NCBI GenBank assembly: GCA_905331295.1
Contig: CAJNYD010000459.1
Coordinates: 350,975 to 414,974, forward strand
Reading direction: 5' to 3'
Source of the DNA: Rotaria socialis
Lineage: Eukaryota
Length of the DNA stretch: 64,000 bases
The notes below the pieces were generated by a model. It worked only from the letters and a program-made list of their open reading frames with translations, made no database searches and had not been told where the DNA came from. Shown here piece after piece: positions 699-49,238 of the stretch; position 1 is the stretch's first letter; each line of letters starts with the position of its first letter. A program made the position numbers and the translations under genes.

Positions 699-2561
699 TT
701 AATCGATAATCATCTGATCGGCTCCATTATTATTGGCTCCACGATGCATTGGTTGTTCCGAAACATTCATCATTGCTTTGAAATGCTTAAAAAGATAATA
801 GCAGAAAAATATATTGTGATACATATGTTTTTCTTTTTATATTACTTCAGAATTTTTGAATCCAAGATAGAGTGTAAATAAAGCATTTAATGATTGAATA
901 CGTGATTCATACACAGGAATATCCAGAAGTGCTTAAGATAAGTAGAGATCAAATATATTAACGAATAATAATATTTTACATACAACATGCAATATCAGCG
1001 TATGTAGCTAAGTCTGTATCAACATCAGCAGGTGGTACCGATGTCTAGAAGAGACAGAAAATTATTTAATACACCATAATTGCTTAAAAATAATAAACCT
1101 CTTTAAGAAGTTCTTCAAATTGAACTGGCCATTCTTGCATTAAACTATCAATATCGGGCATAGGTCTATAAGAATATAAGGTCATAATTTATAAATTTAT
1201 AATTTTCTTTGTTGACAAACTTTCGATATTGAATAGTATCAACTGTCTTGGCTTTTTGTAATTTACTAATATTATGTACCCATTCTTCAATTGCTTTTGG
1301 ATTTTTGTCAGCATTTGATACACGTCTAATAGCCTATGAAGAAAATTTACGCAAGAAGAAAAATAACTCCAATAAATATCGATATTTGCATTCCGTTCTA
1401 CTCACATTTGTTAAACTTGTACTTATAGGTTGTTTGGATGTATAACGTAGTTGAAGCTTAAGAACATGTGGATCAGTTTGTCTTGATGATGGTTCATCAA
1501 GCACAGCAAGGCCAAGTGAATCTTCTTTTCCATCAGGTCGTGGTACCTTTATTGAAAAGAAAATTGCTTATTCCCGACTTGTTTTTATACGTTCATATAC
1601 TTTAAGAAAAGCATCAATGTCACCAATAGCTGGTATATATTCTGAAATAAATGGTCTTAATTTTGTATCAAGTACGATGTCTTGTGGTTGAAATCTAAAT
1701 GGAATTTAATTGGAAAAAACTTCTTGTGCAAGCGAAGAAAAGATAATCGATTACTTTTCAATACATTTAAATATATCTTTTATTTCTGCCGACACTGGTA
1801 AATCTCTATACAAGGATGGATCGTATGCATTTGGATCGGGTGCTCTATATTGTTTTTGACCACCAGCACCACCATTTAAGATTTGTGATGACGGCGGATC
1901 ATAATCTGAATCGCCTTGTGTATCATCATCCTATAGGATAAATAATGCTTTTCTAAGATTAAAAATGACATATCAAATATCATACACGCGGACTAACACC
2001 GGGACTTTCGTCTCGTTGATGATGTATTGGTGGTTCACGAGAAAATTTCGGCAGACTAGCTGGTCCATTGGAATCTGGTGCTAAAAAATTGAAATTGGAA
2101 CAATCTAAGACAAATTTAGATTCTTTGTCTTAAGTTCAAAGCAATTTTTATACAAGACAATATTTAGAAAACTATAACATATATTTTTCACAAATATTTA
2201 TTTAAATAAACCTGGAACGGTTAAAAGATTTGATCGCTTAAGGCCAGTTCTTGGTGAACCTAGGCTTTCTATATTTAAAAATCTTTTTATTCATATGAAA
2301 ATAAAAAACTTTTTAAATAAATTCACAAACCTGGAGGCCTTCGACTACCAGGCTGTGGCGTATATACACTGGCCACATCCTCTCCATCGATGACCTTTAA
2401 ACAGAAGAGAAGGTCATTTTCGTAAAACTTAGTTCATTGATTTCTTACATCCATTGATTCATCGTATATTTGATCTTGTACAACACGAATCTATATATTT
2501 CTCTAATAAAATTTAAATTTTCGTAAAATAAATCTTCTCGTACCTCTTCATCGTCGCTCAT
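699..2561 (-). CDS. IFT46: Intraflagellar transport protein 46, multi-exon
   Basis: Spliced translation starts MSDDEE (ATG 2561-2559), includes YDPSLYRDLPVSAEIKDIF, LRPFISEYIPAIGDIDAFLKVPRPDGKEDSLGLAVLDEPS and MPDIDSLMQEWP, and ends ADQMIID-TAA (701-699). Many short GT-AG introns. Confidence 0.93.
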
Positions 2562-6027: not shown

Positions 6028-8753
6028 CTATTGACTCGTGACAACGGCTGCTTCTTCAATGAAATCTTCAGGTATCCATGGTAGCATATCATCTTCAACT
6101 TCATTTGAGCAATCACATGAATTCATACGCATAATACATGTATCAACTTGATGTTTACGTGGAATAAGCTGAAATGCTGCTTTTACCGAATCCCTAAGAA
6201 AGCAAAAAAAACAAAAATTTTAAAAACATATTTTTCCAAAAAACTTAAGTTTTATAGAATTAAAATTTTCCATTTCTGATTTAAAAAGAAAGATTGGCTC
6301 AGACTTCCAAAGAAGGCATTATTATTTAAAATATGACTGGCCTCACATGTGAGATATTCGAGTGGAAACTGCGTAGCGGAATAAGCATCATCACCGCCAA
6401 TCAAACTGTCCGAACCTAGATTCGAACGTAGGTTGTACTGTTTTATATCTTATTAAACAATTCAACCATATACAGTGATAAACTACGCACCAGAAATGTT
6501 TGGACATAAAGTAGATTGGTTTGCCATATGGAAGACCATTGAATTGAACAGCAGCTGATATTGTATAAGCACCCATATTTTTCCATAAAATCCAATCACC
6601 AATATTTAATTTTGGTATTTGTATAGATTTATTAATACAATCAAGACCATCACATGTCGGTCCCCAAATTGATGTTGTGTATTTTTCATTTAAATCACCC
6701 TATATAAATAGAAGAAAACAAAAATGATGAGAACAAATTTAGAGAAGTTTATTTAATAGATCAAGTTGATTAATACCAACCTTAGTCAATACATGAGGTT
6801 CGGGTACATAGTGATCATAAAGAACACAATTGAATGAACCATAAACACCATCATTGATGTAATACATATATTTCAAGTTTCCTGTTTCTATTTTACAGAA
6901 AAAAAAGGGTATTATTCAGAAAGTTTCTCTAGTAAGAACTTCAGCAGAATAAACTCAGATTTTTAGATTGAGATAGCAATAAGATTATTTCTAACATTCA
7001 CAGAGATGATTAAGTTCTATGAACTGCAATTTAGATTTGATCGGTAAAGAGAATGAAATTTATTTTCATAAACATAACATTAACAATTCGATCCAATGTA
7101 TCGGTACTTGAAAATTGTACAGATTTTCAAAACAAAATATAATAAATTATCAATAAATATTGAAAGACAAAATTTTTATTTCGTGCAAGAAAATTAGTTT
7201 TCTTCATTGTTACTGTCAAAATTTGCAAGCTCAACAATGACTCATTTTTATTTAACAAGTAGTCTCTCAACTATTGCTGTTAACTTCTATTTATTAGGAT
7301 TAATTTTTCTGAAATAAAGCGTTAATTTTCTCTCAATTGAGTTATTTTTCTTTAATCACATAGGATTCATCAATCTATTTAAATACATTTTCGATCGTAT
7401 AATTTGATATCTCTTTCGTAGCAATCAGACAGTTTGTTTCTGCATCATAATCGATATCTTTTTTGGGTATTTACAAAAGAAAGCTCAATAATATATACTT
7501 TCCATTACGAATAAACTAACCTGAATCGACCATTTCTCGTAAAGCAATTACATTTGTTGCTAATGCATAAGCTGAAGCAACGTAATATCGACCTGGTTCA
7601 GCTATGATTTTAATATGACCATCATCAGGAAAATGTTCCTCAAGTGCTTGATTAACAGCTACTGAAATTTCAGTAAAATAATCTTCAGTTCCTGTATTTC
7701 CAGGAAAACCACCACCAATATCAAGTAAATGCATATCAAATCCTAATTTGTTTCCATAGTTCATAATCATGCGAGCATTTTGAATAGCATCAACGAATGC
7801 GTTGCTTGTCATTTGACCACTACCGCAATGAAAACTAAAAAAAAACACAGAACGAAATGATACAGTAATTCATTGGGCATTATTATACCTGACGCCAATG
7901 ATTCTCATGTCAATTTCTTGAGCTTTATCAATTAATTTACGTGCTGTGTTCATGTCAGCACCAAATTTCATTGAAAATCGGCAAACAGCATTTGAATCAT
8001 CCGTTACAATACGTAAAACAAGTCTAACAAAAGAAATATAATAATAATTTCTCGAAACACATAAATATCTACATACTTAGCATTTGGATATATCTGCTTA
8101 ATTTTCATTAATTCTTGTTCATTGTCGAATGTCATAATTTCAACACCAACTTCTTGAGCATACCGTATGTAAGATGATTGCTTGCATGGATTAGCATAAA
8201 TGATACGATCGGCTATTAAAAAAGCAACGATATAACAGATTAAATATTAAAATAAAAAATAATTTCTTACCTGACGCTCCTAAATCCATAACTTTTTTAA
8301 TTTCTCCCTAAAAAATGAATTCATAAGATTATTTTCAAGAAAAGATAATTAAAATCAATTTACTTTGCTTGCACAATCAAAACCAGCTCCAAGATAGGCA
8401 AGAAGTTTGATAACATTGATATCATCATTACATTTAACAGCTAAGTAAAGAAAGAAAAACATAATAACTCTATATTGTCTGAATAAAAAAATTATAATAA
8501 ACTAACCATAATGTGGTTTAACACGAGGCATTAAAGTAATCCAACGAATATGTTTATTGCACACATCTTCAAGATCGACAGCATAAAACGGTTCGACTTC
8601 ATCTTTCTAAAATATATTGAAGATAGTTATTAAATATAAGCATACTTTTGCTTTTAATGATATTACAAGTAGATCGATTTTCTTTTGGATGAATTCTTCA
8701 GCTGTATATTGATTTTTAGTAACAACAATTGAATTATCTTTAATTAGATGCAT
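6028..8753 (-). CDS. ODC1: Ornithine decarboxylase (PLP fold type III), catalytic residues intact, multi-exon
   Basis: Starts MHLIKDNS (ATG 8753-8751). Motifs PHYAVKCND (PLP lysine), [58 protein letters not shown] (catalytic Cys), NMGAYT. The last exon ends VVTSQ-TAG (6030-6028). Confidence 0.96.
6292..6402 (-). ncRNA. SNORD14: U14 (SNORD14) box C/D snoRNA in the last ODC intron
   Basis: 7-bp terminal stem GAUUGGC/GCCAAUC, box C GUGAUGA (6394-6388), box D CUGA (6302-6299), U14 domain A-like CGCAGUUUCCAC (6373-6362) and domain B-like CCUUCUUUGGAAGU (6316-6303) directly before box D. Same strand as the host gene. Confidence 0.88.
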
Positions 8754-8802
8754 TTTTATTTTCTAATTAGAAGAAACTAGTTTGAAAGAGGGACTGCTGA
8801 TA

Positions 8803-8826
8803 GGATTGAATACGAAGTGTCGAATT
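8803..8826 (-). promoter_or_regulatory. ODC 5' UTR element, perfect 24-nt complement of the 3' UTR element at 5897-5920
   Basis: mRNA sense AAUUCGACACUUCGUAUUCAAUCC, starting 1 nt after a leader-intron acceptor and ending 49 nt before the main AUG. Confidence 0.7.
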
Positions 8827-8936
8827 ACTATAAATATTAAAATGATAATTGAATTAAAAAAGAAAAGAAATTGTGATTTAAACTTACGTCGACGATAAAA
8901 GGGAGTTGTTCAGCGATTAAATTCCAATGGCGGGTG

Positions 8937-9145
8937 CTAGCGAAGTGGACCCGGCGTCCAAGGAAATTCAGGCAAGACAGATGATGAACAATCGTGTACC
9001 AATAACAAACAGAAACTTTGATCAGTTAAGTCCTAATGAATTTTGTAGCAAAACGAAAATTATAAATTTCATAAAAAACTAATTTGCAACAAACCTTAAT
9101 TGAAGCACCCCACCCTTTGTCGTCGATACTAGCTTTGGACAATAT
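8937..9145 (-). CDS. Non-AUG upstream ORF (uCC-like regulatory peptide) in the ODC 5' leader, two exons
   Basis: After removing a 62-nt GT-AG intron (9094-9033): ILSKASIDDKGWGASIK|DLTDQSFCLLLVHDCSSSVLPEFPWTPGPLR-TAG, about 48 codons from AUA (9145) or one fewer from UUG (9142). Resembles the AZIN1/ODC uCC (LSDQ...EPPWEPS). No AUG in the spliced leader. Confidence 0.8.
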
Positions 9146-9530
9146 TTTCGGTGTCTTGCGAAAGACGAAAAGAAGTAACCTCCCACTTGATTACACACAA
9201 AAAGTGACTGTAAACTTTTGTATGTGTATTTGTGTTATAGAAACGGACGATAGTAGTCAGACGAAATATGTTGCAGATCAAAAGTAAAATTTGCAATATA
9301 CGTCGAAAGCGAAAATGAGACTATAAAAGAGAGAGAAAAAAATTCAGATATAAAGTAGAGAAAGACGCATCGAGAAAAGACAGAAACAAAGTATAGAAGA
9401 TTAGTAGTGACAATATTGTATAAGAAATAATTTTACAGTTGTCTATTATTTTATTTTTCTGTATAAATGATAACGTTTTTAATCAAAATAAAAAAACTAG
9501 TCATGTCAAGAAGTTGACTTGAGGCTTATA

Positions 9531-9596
9531 ATGACGCATGACGTATAGCGGTTGTTGGATATAAAAATGATAGGATAATGGCGGGCAAAAGCCAAT
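9531..9596. promoter_or_regulatory. Candidate ODC proximal promoter motifs
   Basis: Tandem ATGACG CRE/ATF-like half sites (ATGACGCATGACGTA), a GC-rich GGCGGGCAAAA and a CCAAT clustered about 300 bp upstream of the leader exon. Motif matches only. Confidence 0.25.
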
Positions 9597-11890: not shown

Positions 11891-12132
11891 TAAAATACTG
11901 TATACTCTATTGCAACTCTCTCTCTCTTTATATACTGTAGAAGAATGCACTGGAAATTATTGTAAATACTACTATCTATATTTGGAAATCATGACAAATA
12001 ACTTTCAAACATATTTTATATAATAACTGATTTTGTTAATCAAAAAACAGGAAAATAAATATTATGTTTTATGAAATTTTATTTGTTTGCAATAAATATG
12101 TGTTTGTAAGTTCTTTCATTATTTTTCTTCAG

Positions 12133-14672
12133 ATGTCTATCGAAAACACAATACTTTCGATTGATAATCAACTATCAACATCGTTCAATGAAATCGCTGA
12201 TATTGAAGTTGAAAATTTCTTTGGTTGCTATTTATTAAATAGTTTGAATCCAGCTTGTAAAGGTCGGACTTATATTGGTTTTACTGTTGATCCTCATCGA
12301 CGAATAAAACAACATAATAAAGGCAAAGATTTTGGAGGAGCAAAAAAGACCAGTGGAAAAGGACCATGGTAAGTAAAACAAATGTTTTCTGTTTGTTTTT
12401 CATTAAAAACACTTCAACACTATTAGGGAAATGGTCTTAATTGTACATGGCTTTCCAAATGAAATAACAGCATTACGCGTAAGAGTGAACATTAGGTATA
12501 AAGGATTAGAAAATATTCGTGATTTTTATAGTTTGAATGGGCATGGCAAAATCCTGAACAATCTATACGTCTTAAACATTTAAATTTATCAAAAAACAAA
12601 AGGAAACACACTTTACAATTTAAATTGAAAATTCTTGCTGAAATGCTTTGTATTGGTCCATGGGCACGTTTGCCACTTACAGTTCGATGGTTATCAGACA
12701 AAAAACAAGTACTAGAACGAATGCCACCATTGCATATGCCTATAACAAGTGGACCAATTAATGTTTCCAAACAAACGAATACAATACCATCGAAACGAAA
12801 AAAAACGAACAAGCAAACTTTACCAATAAATGACGATTCACGATGTTTTAGTTCTTGTTCGTTATGTAACAATATTATACAAGTATGTAAAAGGCTATTG
12901 TCTATTCTATTCAATACTGTGAAGTCCAACAAGTGAAATACGAGAGTTTATTTTAGTAGCATAAGCACATCGTAAAAAAACTGCAGCCGATAGATGAGAG
13001 TAATCTGTAGTTTTTTTAATTTTTGAACATAAAAAGTCGAGAACAATTATTATCGCTTCAAGATTGATTGATTTCGAAAGAGGAACTGTTGAAAAATTGT
13101 TATTCAATTTTAAATGCAATTATCTTTTTTGTTTTAAATTAAAGAAAGAAATTTTTTTTAAGTATACAAACAAACTACAAAGTCAAAGTTAATTAGGAAA
13201 GTATAGATAATGAACTCTCAATGGGATGTCCTCATTCAGCAGAGCATAATTTGACGTTAGCAGTTTTTTTCTTTTATTTCGTTTTAAATTAATAATTTCT
13301 TATCGAAGAATAACATCATCAAACTATTTCAGAAATGTTACCAACTCTTTTTTATCGGCTGTTTATCATTTGAAGAATCATTAATCAAATACCATTGCTA
13401 GACATTTTCGATGAAATAGCTTTATATTTTAGTAAATTTTATTTTTGATACTCTCGTGCAAAGAAAATAGAAAAAGTCTGGTGATCGATTTCAATATTTG
13501 TTTTTGAATACAACTACGCAGAAAACTTATAGAAACCTTGAAATTTCATTTCTGTTTATTTTTCATCAACATTCACATTAAATCAAACAGAAAATATGCT
13601 CAACCTTTTGATGTCGAAATTTCTTCTAAGAGTAGAAGAACTTTGGTTTCGCCAAGGACATAAAAGGTCACAGACGAATAATCAATTATCTAAGATTTCA
13701 CTGAACAATATAAAATTCAATAGTTGCAGAGTTTGATAGAATGTGTTTAAACTTTGTAGGATTCTTCATGTAACTCTCTGATTACCATTTTGAGTCTACG
13801 TCATAGTATAGATTTGATTAAATTGCCATTTTATTTGCAGTTAGATAAGAAGATTTATTGTAAGCGTAACTTTCTAATGCGAAAGTAGTGACATAATTCT
13901 GTACGTCTTCAAGTACTAAGATAATCTACAAATTCTGATTGAACTCTGAACACGTAATACTTTCTTGTTCACCTGATAAGCATTCGTCGTAATATTATCT
14001 AACGATATCGTACGTTGAGTATTAGAATAATAATGAATAGGTAACAATATATAGTCATTGTGAAAGCATAATAAATTATTTGAAAAATAAAATAGTTGTG
14101 TACGATTAGTAATCCCCTCGCGAACAATCTGTAGAATAGATAATTTCAACTTTGTTGTTTTAGAAAGTATCGAATTATTTCCTTGTATATAATCTTGAGA
14201 ATTTAATGTTCATCTAGTAGATCAAAATTCCGTTTTCATAAAATCGAAAAGTTTTGCAGTATATTTTTTTTTTGTTACCAAAAATGTAGTGCATCGAAGG
14301 TAAGAGAAAAAAAATAGTATGTTTAAACAGTATGATAAAATAAGACTAGTAAATAAAGGCAATGATAAAGCGTCATTTGTGGAGACGAAAATATAAATAT
14401 TTTAATATCGGACTTTGTTCTTATTTTAGCCACCAATGCACGTATCTTGCCCAAAATGTTCTATATCTTTTCATATTATATGTTTATCAAAATGTTTTCT
14501 TAAGAATACTGAAGAACATTATATTATTCCTATTGATGGTTTATGTCCTTCTTGTAAAAAGAATTTACTATGGGGTGAAATTATACAAAATAAATATACA
14601 AATAGATCATGTGCATTACCAATAGTCACACATTCTGATGAATCAGATGACGATGACGATGTTATTCAGTAA
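12133..14672 (+). CDS. SLX1: Structure-specific endonuclease subunit SLX1 (GIY-YIG nuclease with C-terminal RING/PHD), 4 exons
   Basis: FFGCYLL...[17 protein letters not shown]...[34 protein letters not shown], followed by C-terminal CSLC...CPKC..FHIICL...CPSC..LLWGEII. Long intron ~12883-14429. Confidence 0.94.
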
Positions 14673-25087: not shown

Positions 25088-28000
25088 ATGGCTTTTAAAA
25101 GATCTTTCAATACAACTTCAAAGAATCTTAAGTAAAATAATGAATCTACTAAACATAAAACAATATTTTCTCATTCAGAAATAATGAAACGAACAATTTA
25201 AAACTTGTCGATCTACTTGAGCGTTTTGAACAAGAACGAAATGGATGTGAGCAATTGGTTGAGCAATCAAAGCTAGTTGATCGATTTTTTTCCGATTCTG
25301 AAATGAATAATTTATCGATACTGGTTCAATTTTTTCAATTTCTTTTACATTCAATCCATAGATCAAGACAAAATGTTGCTAAACTTGTTATACGTTTACC
25401 TGGTTCAAAACTTTTAGATTTTTCTTATTCATATTTAAAACCGCATTCGTTGATTGACGAGAATCAAAAAAAATTATTAGAAAAATTTGTTCTTGTTTTA
25501 TCTCAAATTTTACAATTTTTACTTGAACTTCACCCACAGTGTTGGGAGCAAATAGATTCATTAGGTTTATTTGATCGACTTGACAAATGGAGCACAAAAA
25601 TTTCCGTTAGTTTCATTTTTCTTCTTCAAAAGTGTATATTAGATAATATATTTGCTTTCCCTAGGACGAAGATGTACAATTAGAAGTTAGTAAACTAATC
25701 TCTCGCAAAGATGAATTACTCAATGAACATACCAGTAAAATAAAGAAACCTAAATCTGAAATTGAAATTAAAACAGAACCAGACGACCCACCACCAGATG
25801 ATTTTCATCAAGTATATCGTATCTTATTTTTCATCTTGATTTAAAACTTAATTGTAAATTTTAGCTTTCAATTTACCCTACATTAGATGAAATTTTTCAA
25901 CAACAAACTCCCTATTTACGAAAGAACATTACAACTGGTCAATATAAAAATGGCACACATTATTTGGATGTAATTTAACTGTTATAATTTAACACGAATA
26001 TTTTATTTCTTTTTTTTTGTTTTTAAGATTCATTTTCGTCTTCTTCGTGAAGATTTTCTTTGGCCATTACGTGAAGCTATATGCCAATATATGAGCGAAG
26101 ATAATCGAGATATATCATTTCGAAATAGTAATGTTCGTTTATACAGAAATACTATATTAACAGGTTCAATATGTTCACAAGCGGGAATACTATTTTCATT
26201 ATTGATTGATGTCAGCATGCTGCCTAAATCGATTAGTTGGGCTAACACAAGACGTTTAATTTATGGAAACTTATTAGCTGCAACATTTGATGATTTTGAT
26301 AGTAGCTGTTTTCTATTAACGGTTGAAGATCGTTCAAATATTGACAAGAATGGAACAATAAACGTTCGAGTAAATCTCATTTTTCTGTGTTAAAGAAAAA
26401 CAAATTATGAATTAGAAACTATAGACAACTGTTTAATATTCATCGACTTCATACTATAGTTGCGATTAACTATCAGTAGACTTGATAGTTTCATTGTTAC
26501 TCAATATCTCTACTAACGAGCAAAGTTTCAGATCAAAGCTCTTTACTTTAGATTTTTTGAAAGAAAATCTTTTCGAATTCTTGTAAGCATTTCTTATATT
26601 TATGTAGAAATCTATTAGTAGTCGATAGTATAAAATCGAATGGCATTCCATAGTTGTTGAATATGTTTCTTTCTGAGATGAAAAATTTTCTTTTTTTTTT
26701 CTTTTTTTTTAGTGTCAAAAAGCGCTATGTGATTATCAATTAATGAAGATATCACCAGGAACACGTTTTACATTATTAGAAACGACATCATACTTTGAGG
26801 CTTATCGACCAATTTTGCAAGCATTACAAAATATAAAAGATGATCAGATACCCCTTGAAAAATATTTACTTCAATGTGACACAAATGTACCCATACCACA
26901 GTATTTTGAAAAAAAATCAGATATCGATTTTCGACCTATACTAGTGAAAACTTCTGGAGAATATAGTGAATTCGATGGTACTTTAAGCGATATTAAAGAG
27001 TTATCAACATGGCCAAATGCGCAACAACTCGGCCTTGATCAAAGTCAATATACAGCATTACAATTAGCTTTAACAAAATCGGTAGCCCTCATTCAAGGTA
27101 TTGTTCGCATAGATCTTTTTCAAGTAACATTAACATCATTCGTCAAGAAAAAGATCTTCAATATCATTCAGTCAATATTTTTAGCTAAGGAAAATTCATC
27201 CATTGACATAGAATTTATTAATCTTTAAGAGCCTATATCATGTAATTGCTCTTTAGAAGACTTACACAAAAAAAATTCTATTTCTAAACTGAATAGTGTC
27301 AAACGAGAAAAATACTATGTATCGATTTTGCTAACCATATAGTGGATAGACATGTGTGGAAGAGGATCGCTCACAAAGAAAAGCAATTGTCTATTGCATT
27401 CGTCAGCTTCTATGTTTATCGTATGCTTATCTTATTATTTTATTACTTAAAAAAAAGTAGAACTCATTGTATGATTGATCATTAAAAATAAAAATCTAGT
27501 GAAAATTTTCGTTAAATTATTATAGGTCCACCAGGATGTGGAAAAACTTTTCTTGGTGTTCGATTAGCTGAATTATTTTATCGAAATCGGGAGCGAATAT
27601 CTGGTTGTGAACGACCGATTTTGATGATTTGTTATACAAATCATGCATTAGATCAATTTTTATCATCAATTATTCAAAAACTTTCTCTTACACCTGGTCA
27701 AATCGTACGAGTTGGTGGTCGTAGTTCACATCCTCAAATCGAACCATTTTTAATTCAAAAGCTACGTCAAAAAAAGCCAGATGCTCGTTCAAAAAATGAA
27801 TTATTGGCAACTAAATACGATATACTAGCTACCATAAAAAGACAAATTAATGATTGCAATTTGAAATACTATCGATGTTGTCAACAACTACTTGACATTG
27901 ATCAACTCTTATGTGTTATGGATCGAAGTCAATTTTTAACATTATTAGATCCAATTCTATCAGAGTTGGATATTTATCAATGGCATTGGAATACCAGCAA

Positions 28001-31000
28001 AGGCGGACTATATTGCTGTGGATCATCAAAATCAAAAGCAAGCGATAGTGATGATTCCGATGATAGTCAATCTGAAAATGAAAGTATCGCTGAACCTTTG
28101 TCGCCTTATGAAATTAATCAACGAATGAAAAATCGAATTAATTGTCATAAATTAAATAATTTATCAGATGATGATCAAAAACTAATTAAAGAACTTTTTA
28201 TTAAATGGTTAGATGCAACGCCATTACAAATAATTAAGCACGAAATGAACATAGCAAATGAAGGTATAATTTATGATTTAGAATGACGATTGCTCGTTCA
28301 AGCATTTTAAAGATGGATATCTAAATAACGTATATAATTAAACCATGTTAAATTTTATAAGACATTTCTTTAGTTTGAGAGTTTAAACTTGTAAAAGAGT
28401 GAGTTGGTTGCCATTGTTTTTTTTTTCAGACAGACATCACCACTATATTATCTAGTTTCGATCTTGAGAACTACTTCAATGGTTTCTTAGAGAAGCTGCT
28501 TTTGAGTAGTTATTAAAAGAAGAAATTTAAAGATTATATTAATTCTTTACAGAAAGATTTATTTGAGAAAGCGATCATTTCATCGAGATTTCAATTATAG
28601 ATTCGAGTGTTTCTATTCTGAATTATTGATAATTCTAAAAAGAAAATCGGCTCATAGAACTGATAATTGTTCCGGATCTAGTTTTTATGAATCTTATTGA
28701 AAGCATGCTTATCTGCTCTTATTAAAATAATAAAGCAATATATTTTGAAGAACTTTCAATATTATTTATTTTCTTTCCTCATTCTATGAGGAATCGCAGG
28801 ACAATTGTTTCTAATGGCAGTTTCTCATGAGTGTGTCTTGTGAAAACTGATAATCGAAAACGATGAAATAGTTGCAATATAATTAGGAAAAGAAAAATCT
28901 TCAAGCGTTGGATGAGTGATTAAAATTTATTTATTTTATTTAATAATTTCTAACTCGGTTCAATTGATTAAACTGGAATATATATTCTTAATCAGGAAGT
29001 ACCCGAAAAAGAATCTTTGCTAGCATATTTCAATTTTTTTTGAAGCTCATAATCAAAGCGAACGTATTCTTTTCTAATCCATACTACTTTTAATAGATGA
29101 TGATGGTCAAAATGAATTTCAAGAACAACGGAAAAGAAAGAAAAATAAAAATAAAGACAAAGCAGCAGCACTTCTAAAAGGTATATTTGAGTTTATTAAG
29201 TTAAAAAATAACTGATCGATTGCTATTTTTTAGAAGTGCTAAATGATCCGATTCTAACAACAAAACCAACAAATAATACAGCCACTGCTGATGAAAATCC
29301 AGTGAATTTAGAAGAAAATGAAGAAGAAATGCGTCGATTAGAAAACATCGATAACTCATTTATACCATTTTCAATGTCGAATCAAATTGATGAGAAACAA
29401 TATCAAGAAATTGATACTCAACAACTCGAATATATGGAACGTTTATTAAATAATCGAGCAGCCATATTATCGGATGATATAGTCCTGAGTTTTAGAGATT
29501 TATGGGCAAAATCAATAAATAAAGAGCAACGGCAAGATCTGTATCGCTATTGGCTTTCGAAATATGTTCAACAACTTACAGGTTTAACAGGAATAATTTT
29601 CTTTATAAAATACGAATCAGAAAAATATCTAGCAGAAGTATCCATTTTTATTGCTGATTCTTTTAATCATTGCATATTCATACAATACAACATGGAGCAT
29701 AAGAAAAATAAGAAATTTTTTGTATGTAGCATTCATAGATTTCAGTCGTCAGAAATATATTTCTTTACACGAATACTGTCTCGTATTTTTTTTTTATAAA
29801 TTTCTATTTTTTTCCTAGAACAATGGTTTCGTTTAAATGAGCAATACGATGAAAATCATAAATCAATGCAAGAATTATGGCTAGCTAACGATCAATTATA
29901 CATGGACCAAGCATTTATGTAATGAAATTTAGTAAATCCTATTGTCTACTCTTTTGTTTACTTAAGAATTGCTATGACAACACATTGTGCCTCACGGTAT
30001 CAAAAAGTATTGAAGCAAATAGCTCCTCGCATTTGTATCGTAGAAGAAGCAGCTGAAGTAAATTTTAAAAAAACACTGCTTATCAATAAATTGAAAATAT
30101 TATTCCTTTTCAGGTATTTGAATCACATATTGTTACAGCAATTGGAGAACGAATTGAACATTTAATTCTTATTGGTGATCATGTACAACTTCGTCCATCG
30201 CCAAATGTTTATACATTAGCAAAACATTTCAATCTTGATGTATCCTTATTTGAACGATTAATTAAAAATCAAATGCCATCTGTTCAATTGTGTGTTCAAC
30301 ATCGTTCAATTCCAATTATTTCTAGTTTAACACATCATTTTTATGACATACCAATACTCAATCATGAATCAGTACTTAGTCGTTCGCCCATTATTGGGGT
30401 AGCTCATCCACTTTACTTTATTGCTCATAGAAATTTCGAAGAAAATGTTGCCGATGGCCAATCAAAAAGAAACTCCTATGAAAGTAATTATGTTTTACAA
30501 TTAGCTGATTATTTAATTCAGCAAGGATATGAAAAAAGAGATATAACTATTTTAACAACATACATGGGTCAACGGCAACAAATTCAAAAAGCAATGAACC
30601 AATTAAAACATCTTAAAGGCATTCATGTTACCGTGAGTAGTTCTATCAAATACGTATCGATATTGTAATTATTTAAGATTTTTAAAATTCTTATATATAT
30701 TTAGGTCGTCGATAATTTTCAAGGAGAAGAAAATCGAATTATTCTATTGAGTCTGGTAAGAAGCAATGCTGACCAACGTCTTGGATATATTGGTGTTGAT
30801 AATCGTATATGTGTTGCATTATCGCGTGCGCAAAATGGATTCTATGTTATAGGAAATTTTCATTTACTTGCTGAACATAGTGAAACATGGAAAATTATAA
30901 TAGATAAAATGAAACTACTAAAACTCATTGGATCAGGTTTGTATATTTTCTAAATTTCGAGAGCTATGGATTCAAATTTAAAGTTTCATCCAACAGTATG

Positions 31001-45902: not shown

Positions 45903-48106
45903 ACACCAAAATATTCTTCTCTATCATCAATGATTATAGTTGTGTGTTTCTAGCCTTGATTTTTAGGGTGCTGAAGAGCTTTTTAATCGTTAGACAATAG
46001 CACATTCTTTACACACTTCGGTTTTACTTATGCTACGGACAGTTTTCGTGCGTTCTTTCATTTGTAATCGCCTAATATATCTGACACATAAATAGAGTTT
46101 TGCTCAATTCCGCCTGTAAGACATATTTTGTATTTTTTCTATGGAATTTGAACGATTTCAAACCGTTTTCTATCATCCGATGGCATGTTTATTTTTAATC
46201 ATAGCATGTACATTCGTATATATATATATATATATATATTTATACAGTCATTGATGTTTCATGGGATATGTGCTGTAAATTATGTGACAATTTAAATTAT
46301 TAATGTTTTTCTTTTTATCTATATTTTGATAAGGAATTTACATCTGAATCTAATCCAACTCATAAAAATTTTAAAATTATCACAATAATATTCATAATCA
46401 TCGATGGCGTAGATGAATCTTTTACATGATGCGGCGTTCTATTATTCTTTTTCAAAAGAGGATATCTAGACCCGTGAAAATTGTAAAAACCGAAAATTAA
46501 AATCTTTGTACACGTTACTCTCTAATTTGAAATGATAGCAAAAAGCAATACATATAAATGAAAAATTTTAAATTTTTAGGTGTTGAAGAACACGATAAAA
46601 ATCTAAATCCTTTTACAGATTTAATCAAGACACTATTCTATTTATAAGATAAAAACAATTGAAATTGAGATATCCCAGCATTTGTAGAAGCGCCTTCCTA
46701 AGAAATATGTAAAAATACTTGTAAATTTCTTTTAGTTATTACTATTGATATTGTCAAGAAACAATGGATGTGACTATTTTATGAATAGCGTTTGATAGAA
46801 TGGAATCAGCGAATTGAGACTTCTACTTCTACTATTCATAAAAGAATTTTTTAGAGACACAAAATAATGCATTATTAGATCGGCTTACAATTCACCTGTA
46901 ATATGAACTTTTGAAAAAGACTTTTGACAATACTCTTATAGAACAGTTTTTCATATCTTTTTCGCTCTTACTTATGATTAAAGATTCGATTGAATTATGC
47001 TACGTTAAGATTTTTTTCTTCTACTATTCATACCTTATTAATGATGCCAGATATTTTCTGAAAATGTTACTCATTGATTTTAAGTCATCTTAACGTGTGT
47101 CCAGCATACGCTTGATGAAGTACTTTGAATTCAGTGATGATACATGCTTTCGGTATCAAGCTAATACTAAGTAACGAGTAGTGAAATTTTTGAAACAATG
47201 CACGATAATACGCACGAGTTAAAACTTCGAGTATCTAAAATTTTAAATTAATAATTTAAAATCACATTGAAACCGAAAAGAAAACTTATCATTGAACTCG
47301 ATGTAGGTCATTTTCCTATCTTCAGTTGTCTTAAATTGATGTTACATTAGTTGGTTTAAATTCATCAGTCTTTGAAGAAACGTTGTAACTTTTGAACAGT
47401 ACAGTCTGCATATTCTGGTTTTTTTTATTTTCAGTAAATATACATTTAATCAGCCAATTTTTAATTGTAAATAGAAAATACCACAGTTTGCTGTCTGACT
47501 TCGATCTTTAAGTACTGAGAAATGAGATCTATAGCAATTCAATTTCACTGATTAATTTTTTTCACACTAATGAACATAATCTTAGATATGATTTTTGTTG
47601 CTTTTTTGTTATAGTTAACACAGATAATTTAAAATGTTAATAAAGAAATCGCAGTTTTATAAGGAAGTATCATAACAGAAAATGTGATGAATATTTCAGC
47701 AAGCATGTTCTTCTTCGTTTTTGAGAAAAGACACACGAGTTTCAGTTTATCATTATCTATAACCCTAGAAAATCTTATGACGCACGCATATTAACTATTT
47801 GTTTCATCTCTTCTATTTCTCAGTCAAAAAGAAAGAGAACATAATATCTAGTGAATGCAAATGTTTATGGTTTACATTGGAAATGATGTTCTGTTCAACT
47901 AAATCTTAAGAAAATTTATCTATACAATGAAGTTAAACGAAGAATGTAAATATCAAATTATTATTCATAATAAATAGCTATTAAGTTCTACTACATCAAT
48001 TTTGCATAACTTAGAACTATAGATGAGAATAGCTAATCAATAATAAAACGCCTATATCACTAAATTTTATTTTATTTTTTTATTTAGACTTTTAACAAAG
48101 CTTCAA

Positions 48107-49238
48107 ATGCAGTGTGTAATATATTGTCGTAATCGAACAGTTTTATTGACATCGTTTACGTTATTCGTCTTACTATTTACATACGTCATTTATCCATGGT
48201 TTTATTATGCTTGGATTTGGCGAAATAGTGATATCAATCATCTTGATTTTCCAATAGCATCAAAATCAAATGATACTGTTGCTACTGTTCCACGTATAAT
48301 ACACCAAACGTGGCGCGACGCTGATAAAATACCAATCGATTGGCAACAAGCATCAAATAGTTGCAGATCATTTCATCCTAACTATCAGTACCGTTTATGG
48401 TCAGATAAAAGTGCTCGTCTTTTGATTGAAAAAGAATTCCCCTGTTTATTATCAACATTCGATGAGTATCCATATGATATTCAACGTGCCGATGTCATTC
48501 GTCTTGTTGTTTTATATGTTTATGGAGGAATTTATTTAGATTTAGATATTATTTGTCTAAAACCATTGGATAAATTACTGACATTTAAATTTATTTTACC
48601 AAAAACCATGCCGGTTGGTTTATCCAATGACTTTATACTAGCCGAGCCAAAAAGTCCATTTTTACTACAAGTTTTGAATGATTTACCCAAATATAATCGA
48701 AATTATTGGACTAAGTAAATTTTATTTCGTTAATTTATTAACGAAAAGAAAAAAAAACAATACTTATTCTTTTTCTAATTAAGATATTCAACTGTTATGT
48801 TTTCAACGGGGCCTATGTTTTTAACACATGAAGCATCATATTATCCAAATCGGTCTTCTATAAATGTTCTTTCTCAAGAACTTTACGGAAAATATATTTT
48901 TAATTCGTCACTTGCTCTGTTTCGACATTTGAAAGGTATGAAGACGACAAGAAAGAAAGAGACGATGATTACTTATAAAAGGATTTAATTTATATCGTTT
49001 AGCTTCGTCTTGGCACGGCAATGATGCTGCATTCGTCAAATGGATTTACCGTCGACGCACAATTTTGTTCCTAGTATTAACTGCTTTATTTGTGATTATC
49101 AATGCCATTATTTATTCTATTCAATATCGCCATACACTTAGGAATGTTCTTAAAAAAATTCCTTCACTCATAAAGTCAATATCAAATGGGCAATCTTTAA
49201 GATATGAAAAAATTCATTCGAACATTGTTCTTATTTAA
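48107..49238 (+). CDS. Glycosyltransferase family 32 (DXD), SUR1/CSH1-like inositol phosphoceramide mannosyltransferase, 3 exons
   Basis: N-terminal hydrophobic anchor, VPRIIHQTW, YPYDIQRADVIR..VLY.YGGIYLDLD, GLSNDFI, VMFSTGPMFL, SSWHGNDA, C-terminal TM segment. Introns 48715-48783 and 48936-49002; stop TAA 49238. Confidence 0.88.

Follow-up and report, generated by a model that had tools for sequence, protein, structure and literature searches.

The AUU-initiated upstream conserved coding region (uCC) of vertebrate antizyme inhibitor 1 (AZIN1) mRNA was reportedly described by Ivanov et al. in 2008 and 2018. As outlined in the literature, inhibition of eIF5A by polyamines stalls ribosomes at a Pro-Pro-Trp (PPW) motif of AZIN1, and the resulting queue boosts initiation at the AUU codon (PMC9082881, PMC11550727). 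The uCCs of invertebrate and fungal ornithine decarboxylase (ODC) mRNAs fall, according to a review, into four independent groups of 22–100 codons, with known putative UUG starts; in the same review, almost all uCCs have two adjacent prolines, and a Pro-Ser end occurs in animals of six phyla (PMC2811004). Rotifers are not mentioned in that review, and our literature searches on rotifer ODC, uORFs (upstream open reading frames) of bdelloids, and uCCs found no description of a rotifer uCC; the uCC alignments of 2008 and 2018 may list one.

Here, we describe a uORF in the leader of an ODC gene of the bdelloid rotifer Rotaria socialis, located on a 64,000-nt stretch of contig CAJNYD010000459.1 (hereafter the window, in whose numbering all coordinates are given). 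A sequence-only reading of this DNA had proposed a uCC-like, non-AUG upstream frame on a catalytically intact ODC; the frame proves to be spliced and conserved and the active-site motifs are present, which bears the proposal out at the level of sequence. We consider it probable, if far from certain, that this conserved, spliced, and AUG-less uORF acts as a uCC-type polyamine/eIF5A queuing brake on bdelloid ODC, with the stall at TPGPL rather than at Pro-Pro-Trp.

Like the AZIN1 uCC, the rotifer uORF lies in the leader of an ODC-family mRNA and has a putative non-AUG start with A at −3. The AZIN1 uCC has 52 codons and the rotifer uORF 47–48, and in both, conservation is concentrated at the C-terminus. 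By eye, the rotifer E-x-P-W-x-P matches four of the six residues of AZIN1 EPPWEP (peptide from the S5 legend of PMC9648851), and the start-to-Trp distance is similar (codon 41–42 in the rotifer, codon 49 in AZIN1). Unlike the AZIN1 uCC, the rotifer uORF has AUA/UUG instead of AUU and GPLR-stop instead of PS-stop; no AUG uORFs accompany it, its host appears to be a catalytic ODC, its frame is split by a conserved intron, and its leader is probably trans-spliced. With the invertebrate and fungal ODC uCCs it shares the catalytic ODC host, a length in the 22–100 codon range, and a precedent for the UUG start, but it has neither the adjacent prolines nor the Pro-Ser end of the uCCs covered in PMC2811004. 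The tiny/small uORF pair of plant AdoMetDC, outlined in the same review, also resembles the rotifer arrangement, in that a tiny ORF overlaps the start of a sequence-dependent uORF of ~50 codons in a polyamine gene; the plant pair has AUG starts, whereas the rotifer tiny ORF has an AUU start and a different overlap, and its conservation is not significant. Because Pro-Pro(-Trp) is absent near the C-terminus and the frame ends in PLR-stop rather than Pro-Ser-stop in all seven sequences that we compared, we do not file the rotifer uORF as a PPW-type uCC. Judged by its ODC leader, conserved frame and C-terminus, and putative non-AUG start, its sequence features are those of ODC-homologue uCCs as a broad class.

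The ODC gene and its surroundings

The ODC protein is 98.2 per cent identical to P0001 (named Rotaria magnacalcarata by its source), and its other named close matches are from Rotaria, Adineta, and Didymodactylos. The bit score of P0001 is 454 with mouse ODC and 310 with antizyme inhibitor. In the window, the protein retains the K65, H193, and C347 motifs, which we take to be the active-site Lys (PLP), His, and catalytic Cys. Judged by these motifs and bit scores, the gene is a bdelloid ODC of the catalytic type rather than an antizyme inhibitor. Its features are collected in Table 1.

Table 1. Features of the Rotaria socialis ODC locus, in window coordinates.
Feature	Position	Strand	Evidence or remarks
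AG of a 3′ splice acceptor, preceded by a polypyrimidine tract; 5′ boundary of leader	9321..9322	minus	X1/X6 contig ends; conserved
Start block of 12 invariant nt, containing AUA (9145–9143) and UUG (9142–9140) in frame	9140..9151	minus	Identical in 7/7
uORF exon 1, 17 codons	9095..9145	minus	Frame reading, contigs, homologues
Overlapping AUU (A at −3, G at +4), −1 frame, opening a 4-codon ORF	9129..9143	minus	Stop position (TAG or TAA) shared by 7/7
Phase-0 intron within uORF, 62 nt, GT-AG	9033..9094	minus	Spliced in 4/4 runs; position shared by 7/7, length 53–62 nt
uORF exon 2, 31 codons and TAG	8937..9032	minus	Frame reading, homologues
Conserved C-terminus PE[F/S]PWTPGPLR-stop, with predicted stall segment TPGPL (8957–8943)	8937..8972	minus	Homologues, second ODC copy
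Invariant non-coding 10-nt block past the uORF stop	8906..8915	minus	Identical in 7/7; spacing from stop shifts by 1–2 nt
Second leader intron, 60 nt	8828..8887	minus	X5 and X6 contigs; same place in 7/7
Conserved non-coding block opening leader exon 3	8803..8827	minus	Homologue comparison; no fixed frame
ODC, 10 coding exons, 455 aa	6028..8753	minus	Splicing to intact protein; catalytic residues present
U14 (SNORD14)-like box C/D snoRNA in last ODC intron	6295..6399	minus	51 bits, E 5.9e-9; gathering score of 64 not reached

The window is AT-rich (~30 per cent GC), and its introns are short. One ODC intron (7520–6888) is unusually long at 633 nt, compared with neighbours of ~60 nt; a contig of 246 nt from sequencing run X1 covers 7102–7347 within it, and no Rfam match was found in this intron. 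The U14-like snoRNA in the last ODC intron is also seen in L014, a homologous locus from metagenomes (2040–2142, minus strand, 46.9 bits, likewise under the gathering score of 64); the match is absent from two other homologous loci, L025 and L001, both of which may stop short of the last ODC intron. In vertebrates, U14 is hosted by other genes. A domain scan of 14 of the 39 long ORFs of the window placed a GIY-YIG domain (12040–12369, plus strand, E 1.3e-6) upstream of ODC, in an ORF that is possibly the remnant of a Penelope-like element, and also revealed an exon of the AAA_11 helicase type at 27516–28283 and one of a DXD glycosyltransferase at 48047–48715, both on the plus strand.

Splicing and extent of the leader

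The transcript evidence consists of contigs from four runs (X1, X3, X5, and X6), one of which is RNA on record and three of which are presumed RNA; such contigs give neither strand, expression level, nor true 5′ end. Read from AUA at 9145, the uORF runs for 17 codons, is interrupted by the phase-0 intron 9094–9033, and continues for 31 codons to TAG at 8939–8937, giving 48 codons with the coordinates, frame, and peptide of the sequence-only reading. That reading depended on splicing of this intron and on transcripts that begin upstream of 9145; the intron is skipped in contigs of all four runs (joint 9031>9094, CT..AC), and transcripts reach 9322. The second leader intron is skipped in X5, where pieces 8888–9031 and 8667–8827 are contiguous, and in X6. 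Continuous spliced contigs join the uORF exons to the ODC coding exons.

The X1 and X6 contigs stop matching at 9322 and carry 4 and 5 extra letters, respectively, and positions 9428–9574 are uncovered in all four runs. The acceptor sits 157–186 nt before AUA in each of the seven sequences. More than half of bdelloid transcripts receive an added leader of 23 nt (PMC1925144). Because the contigs end at an AG after a pyrimidine tract and leader addition is known from bdelloids, 9322–9321 is likely a trans-splice site at which the spliced leader (SL) would be added.

From this acceptor to the ODC ATG (8753–8751), the spliced leader is 445 nt long and contains no AUG, compared with ~6.6 expected from its composition. 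Shuffling the leader 5000 times yielded four AUG-free sequences, and none of 2544 overlapping genomic windows of 445 nt was free of AUGs. The earlier description of the leader was thus accurate as to the lack of AUG and too short as to its length (~360 nt). The same holds for all seven leaders (424–450 nt), none of which has an AUG where ~6 would be expected in each. The leader is purged of AUGs and spliced as described. Before splicing, the leader has a single ATG, located at 9072 inside the uORF intron, and intron retention would bring in this upstream AUG plus an in-frame stop.

Homologous leaders

Homologues were sought in metagenomes with a degenerate pattern for PE[F/L/P/S]PWTPGP, which matched 40 loci. 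Thirty of these were dropped as chance matches (GC 0.50–0.76, no ODC by tblastn), and the remaining 10 are AT-rich ODC leaders, nine of them recognized by tblastn and one (L037, which had no tblastn match) by its near-identity to L001. L014, L032, L037, and L040 were left out as near-identical to L001. The comparison set therefore comprises the window and six distinct loci (L001, L010, L023, L024, L025, and L034), whose ODC identity was confirmed over 62–395 recovered codons; because L010, L023, and L024 are close kin, these seven sequences represent about five lineages. The pattern fixed positions 1–2 of most PE.PWTPGP codons, and ODC loci lacking the motif are not retrievable with it, whereas it left the start block, the intron, the frame, the LR-stop end, and third codon positions unconstrained. 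The C-terminal pattern had no match in genome_contigs or viral_contigs, and when 1.84 billion representatives were searched by phmmer with the exon-2 peptide (31 aa), there were three weak matches in long proteins, none of them plausible.

All seven sequences share the acceptor, the AUA-UUG start block, the phase-0 intron, an open frame of 47–48 codons, the PE[F/S]PWTPGPLR-stop end, and the second intron. Additionally, a diverged second ODC copy, seen only as contig pieces in X1 and X3, aligns to the leader at 9116–9151 and 8928–8972 only, and provides backing for the conserved start block and C-terminus that is independent of the search pattern.

Selection on the uORF

The uORF frame is free of stops in all seven sequences, for which P is ~0.02 if codons 7–35 change neutrally; the +1 frame is likewise without stops in six of the seven. 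The peptide encoded by codons 7–35 changes as if neutral (pN/pS of 0.72 versus a simulated neutral value of 0.79 ± 0.16), and across the three frames the ratio is 0.72, 0.87, and 0.75, so that frame 0 is not singled out. The only indel within the uORF is of 3 nt, as against 13 gap runs in the 5′ flank (six of them not multiples of 3) and four after the stop (all four not multiples of 3). Neutral-like change, a frame kept open, and a sole in-frame indel together suggest that the middle of the uORF is a spacer.

The C-terminus behaves differently. In the last 12 codons, four of the five variable columns are third positions with synonymous change, and pN/pS is 0.09, a value that is partly circular because the search pattern fixed much of that end. 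In the seven sequences, what is conserved is thus the start block, the open frame, its length, and the C-terminus, and not the middle peptide. The conservation of frame and peptide anticipated from the sequence alone is found in the open frame and the C-terminus of all seven sequences and breaks down in the middle. A proposed parallel between LTDQ and the LSDQ of AZIN1 does not survive the comparison: in the six homologues, the place of LTDQ is taken by LPSE, LTSE, LTFE, LTSE, LTSK, and VIAK, and LTDQ is spaced 20 residues from the E of ExPW, versus 25 in AZIN1 (counted by eye). We also rejected the possibility that the frame is an N-terminal extension of ODC or is joined to it by stop read-through, as the distance from the uORF stop to the ODC ATG varies from 100 to 127 nt with all three phases represented.

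Synonymous sites of the C-terminus are more conserved than those of ODC (pS of 0.12 versus 0.38; four-fold sites invariant in 5/8 versus 5/15), which indicates an added constraint at the RNA level. Together with the conserved non-coding blocks that extend past the stop and a possible invariant 5-bp hairpin in the WTPGP codons, this reduced synonymous change could mean that the conserved blocks are RNA elements (structures or protein-binding sites) and that the frame is untranslated. We regard this explanation as highly improbable, since none of the 15 predicted pairs of exon 2 has a compensatory change, no window has a consistent folding z-score across the seven sequences, the leader has no Rfam match, and the uORF changes mostly at third positions and has an indel only in frame. 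A conserved RNA structure was rejected on the absence of compensatory pairs (0/15) and on a junction hairpin that is unsupported in the window and in L001. This hairpin, ~30–65 nt after AUA, would form only after splicing and has z-scores of −1.1 to −3.7 in L023, L024, L025, L034, and L010, whereas the window scores +0.5 and L001 scores −0.1. The 5-bp hairpin of the WTPGP codons (8960–8946) has two varying third positions in its loop and shows no covariation. Separately, the translation of the block at 8827–8803 also occurs in N-terminal extensions predicted for two ODCs of Adineta, P0021 and P0052; these extensions are probably annotation errors.

Candidate start codons

Both AUA and UUG have A at −3 in all seven sequences, as had been noted from the window alone, and U or C rather than G at +4. 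Invariance of the start block was reached in none of 2000 neutral simulations. Directly 5′ of the block lies a one-base indel; in L034, an in-frame stop occurs five codons upstream of the block, and the loose end of X3 at 9151 reads alike. On these grounds, we rejected a start upstream of the block. Because of the L034 stop, AUA and UUG are the sole in-frame near-cognate codons before codon 17 that are common to all seven sequences, and initiation may take place at AUA, at UUG, or at both. In the L001 lineage, an in-frame AUU in poor context, four codons upstream, reads I-H-P-K; by eye it resembles the IPPK start of AZIN1, and we note it as a lead only.

The best start context belongs to the overlapping AUU, whose A at −3 and G at +4 make it better placed than either AUA or UUG, and AUU is the usual uCC start according to PMC2811004. 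Its 4-codon ORF might compete with the long uORF, as in the tiny/small pair of plant AdoMetDC, or feed it by an antizyme-like +1 shift: the ORF stops after four codons in all seven sequences, including one in which TAG has changed to TAA, and a +1 shift at this stop leads into the frame of the uORF. We consider this very unlikely. An AUU arises automatically wherever AUA adjoins UUG, the retention of the stop is not significant (chance of 0.07–0.48 in simulations), and the stop is preceded by differing codons (AGC, GAC, and AAC), unlike at a dedicated shift site.

The C-terminus and the predicted stall site

PW is preceded by F or S, and never by P, in all 10 ODC-type loci, despite a pattern that permitted P; in the window it is F, as had been reported from the sequence. 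TPGPL is invariant in all seven sequences, with part of it fixed by the search pattern, and the F varies to S in one lineage. TPG, PGP, and GPL are listed among the eIF5A-dependent pause tripeptides of yeast (Fig. S4 of PMC5499558); such Pro/Gly matches are not rare because the list holds more than 200 motifs. A search of the supplementary text of the same source, in a jumbled, machine-read, and perhaps incomplete version, did not find FPW, SPW, or PWT. Additionally, the mouse Azin1 uCC has its strongest disome site at a GP dipeptide (bioRxiv 10.1101/710061). We place the predicted stall at TPGPL rather than at FPW because TPG, PGP, and GPL are listed, FPW and SPW were not found in that text, and F varies to S; the role of FPW as a stall site, which had been proposed along with its presence, is therefore doubtful.

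The same polyamine/eIF5A brake could instead stall ribosomes at the Pro-Trp of E-x-P-W or at termination after Pro-Leu-Arg, which we judge unlikely. The E, P, and W are conserved and align by eye with EPPW of AZIN1, although the search pattern required them; a stall at this site is disfavoured by the consistent lack of P before PW and by the failure to find FPW, SPW, or PWT in the available text of the yeast list. The pattern left the L, R, and TAG free, and these are invariant in all seven sequences; termination is another step at which eIF5A acts (PMC5499558), a case in point being the PS-stop of HOL1 as summarised in PMC11550727; here, the stop has no adjoining Pro.

The missing prolines also bear on whether the uORF responds to polyamines at all. 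Adjacent prolines and a terminal Pro-Ser are both key for polyamine dependence according to PMC2811004, and exon junctions lie downstream of the uORF stop. The uORF might accordingly be translated and inhibitory without responding to polyamines, as a constitutive damper, a trigger of nonsense-mediated decay (NMD), or a detector of some other stress, for example desiccation. We think this improbable, because a weak start and a distant, conserved Pro/Gly-rich end on the first enzyme of polyamine synthesis match the known queuing design, and a plain damper would have no need of a fixed length or a conserved C-terminus.

A model for the polyamine brake

We infer that the uORF is translated, that ribosomes stall near its end, and that the stall responds to polyamines. 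Under the proposed TPGPL brake, which is modelled on AZIN1 (PMC9082881, PMC11550727), most scanning subunits would bypass the weak AUA and UUG codons and arrive at the ODC AUG, 123 nt past the uORF stop. The few ribosomes that enter the uORF would depend on eIF5A to clear its Pro/Gly-rich end. At high polyamine concentrations, eIF5A would be inhibited and ribosomes would pause ~126–138 nt from the start, with the middle of the uORF acting as a spacer of fixed length. The queue behind the paused ribosomes would park scanning subunits over AUA and UUG, which would raise uORF initiation and repress ODC. So formulated, the brake is a variant of a described mechanism and not a new one.

In a more elaborate version, the bdelloid ODC sensor would have been rewired twice. 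Its stall would have changed from PPW to a PPW-free TPGPL/PLR-stop, and entry would be gated by a six-base triple start (AUA/AUU/UUG), with the 4-codon AUU ORF either bypassing the brake or feeding it via a polyamine-stimulated +1 shift at its stop. We regard this version as quite improbable; if it were true, antizyme-like and AZIN1-like control would be combined in one leader.

Implications

Searches for uCCs that are keyed on PP will overlook members such as this one. The queuing model has so far been built on one tested motif, PPW in AZIN1, and a lineage that lacks Pro-Pro and the terminal Pro-Ser, yet keeps a weak start, the spacer length, and a Pro/Gly end, would offer a natural test of what the sensor requires.
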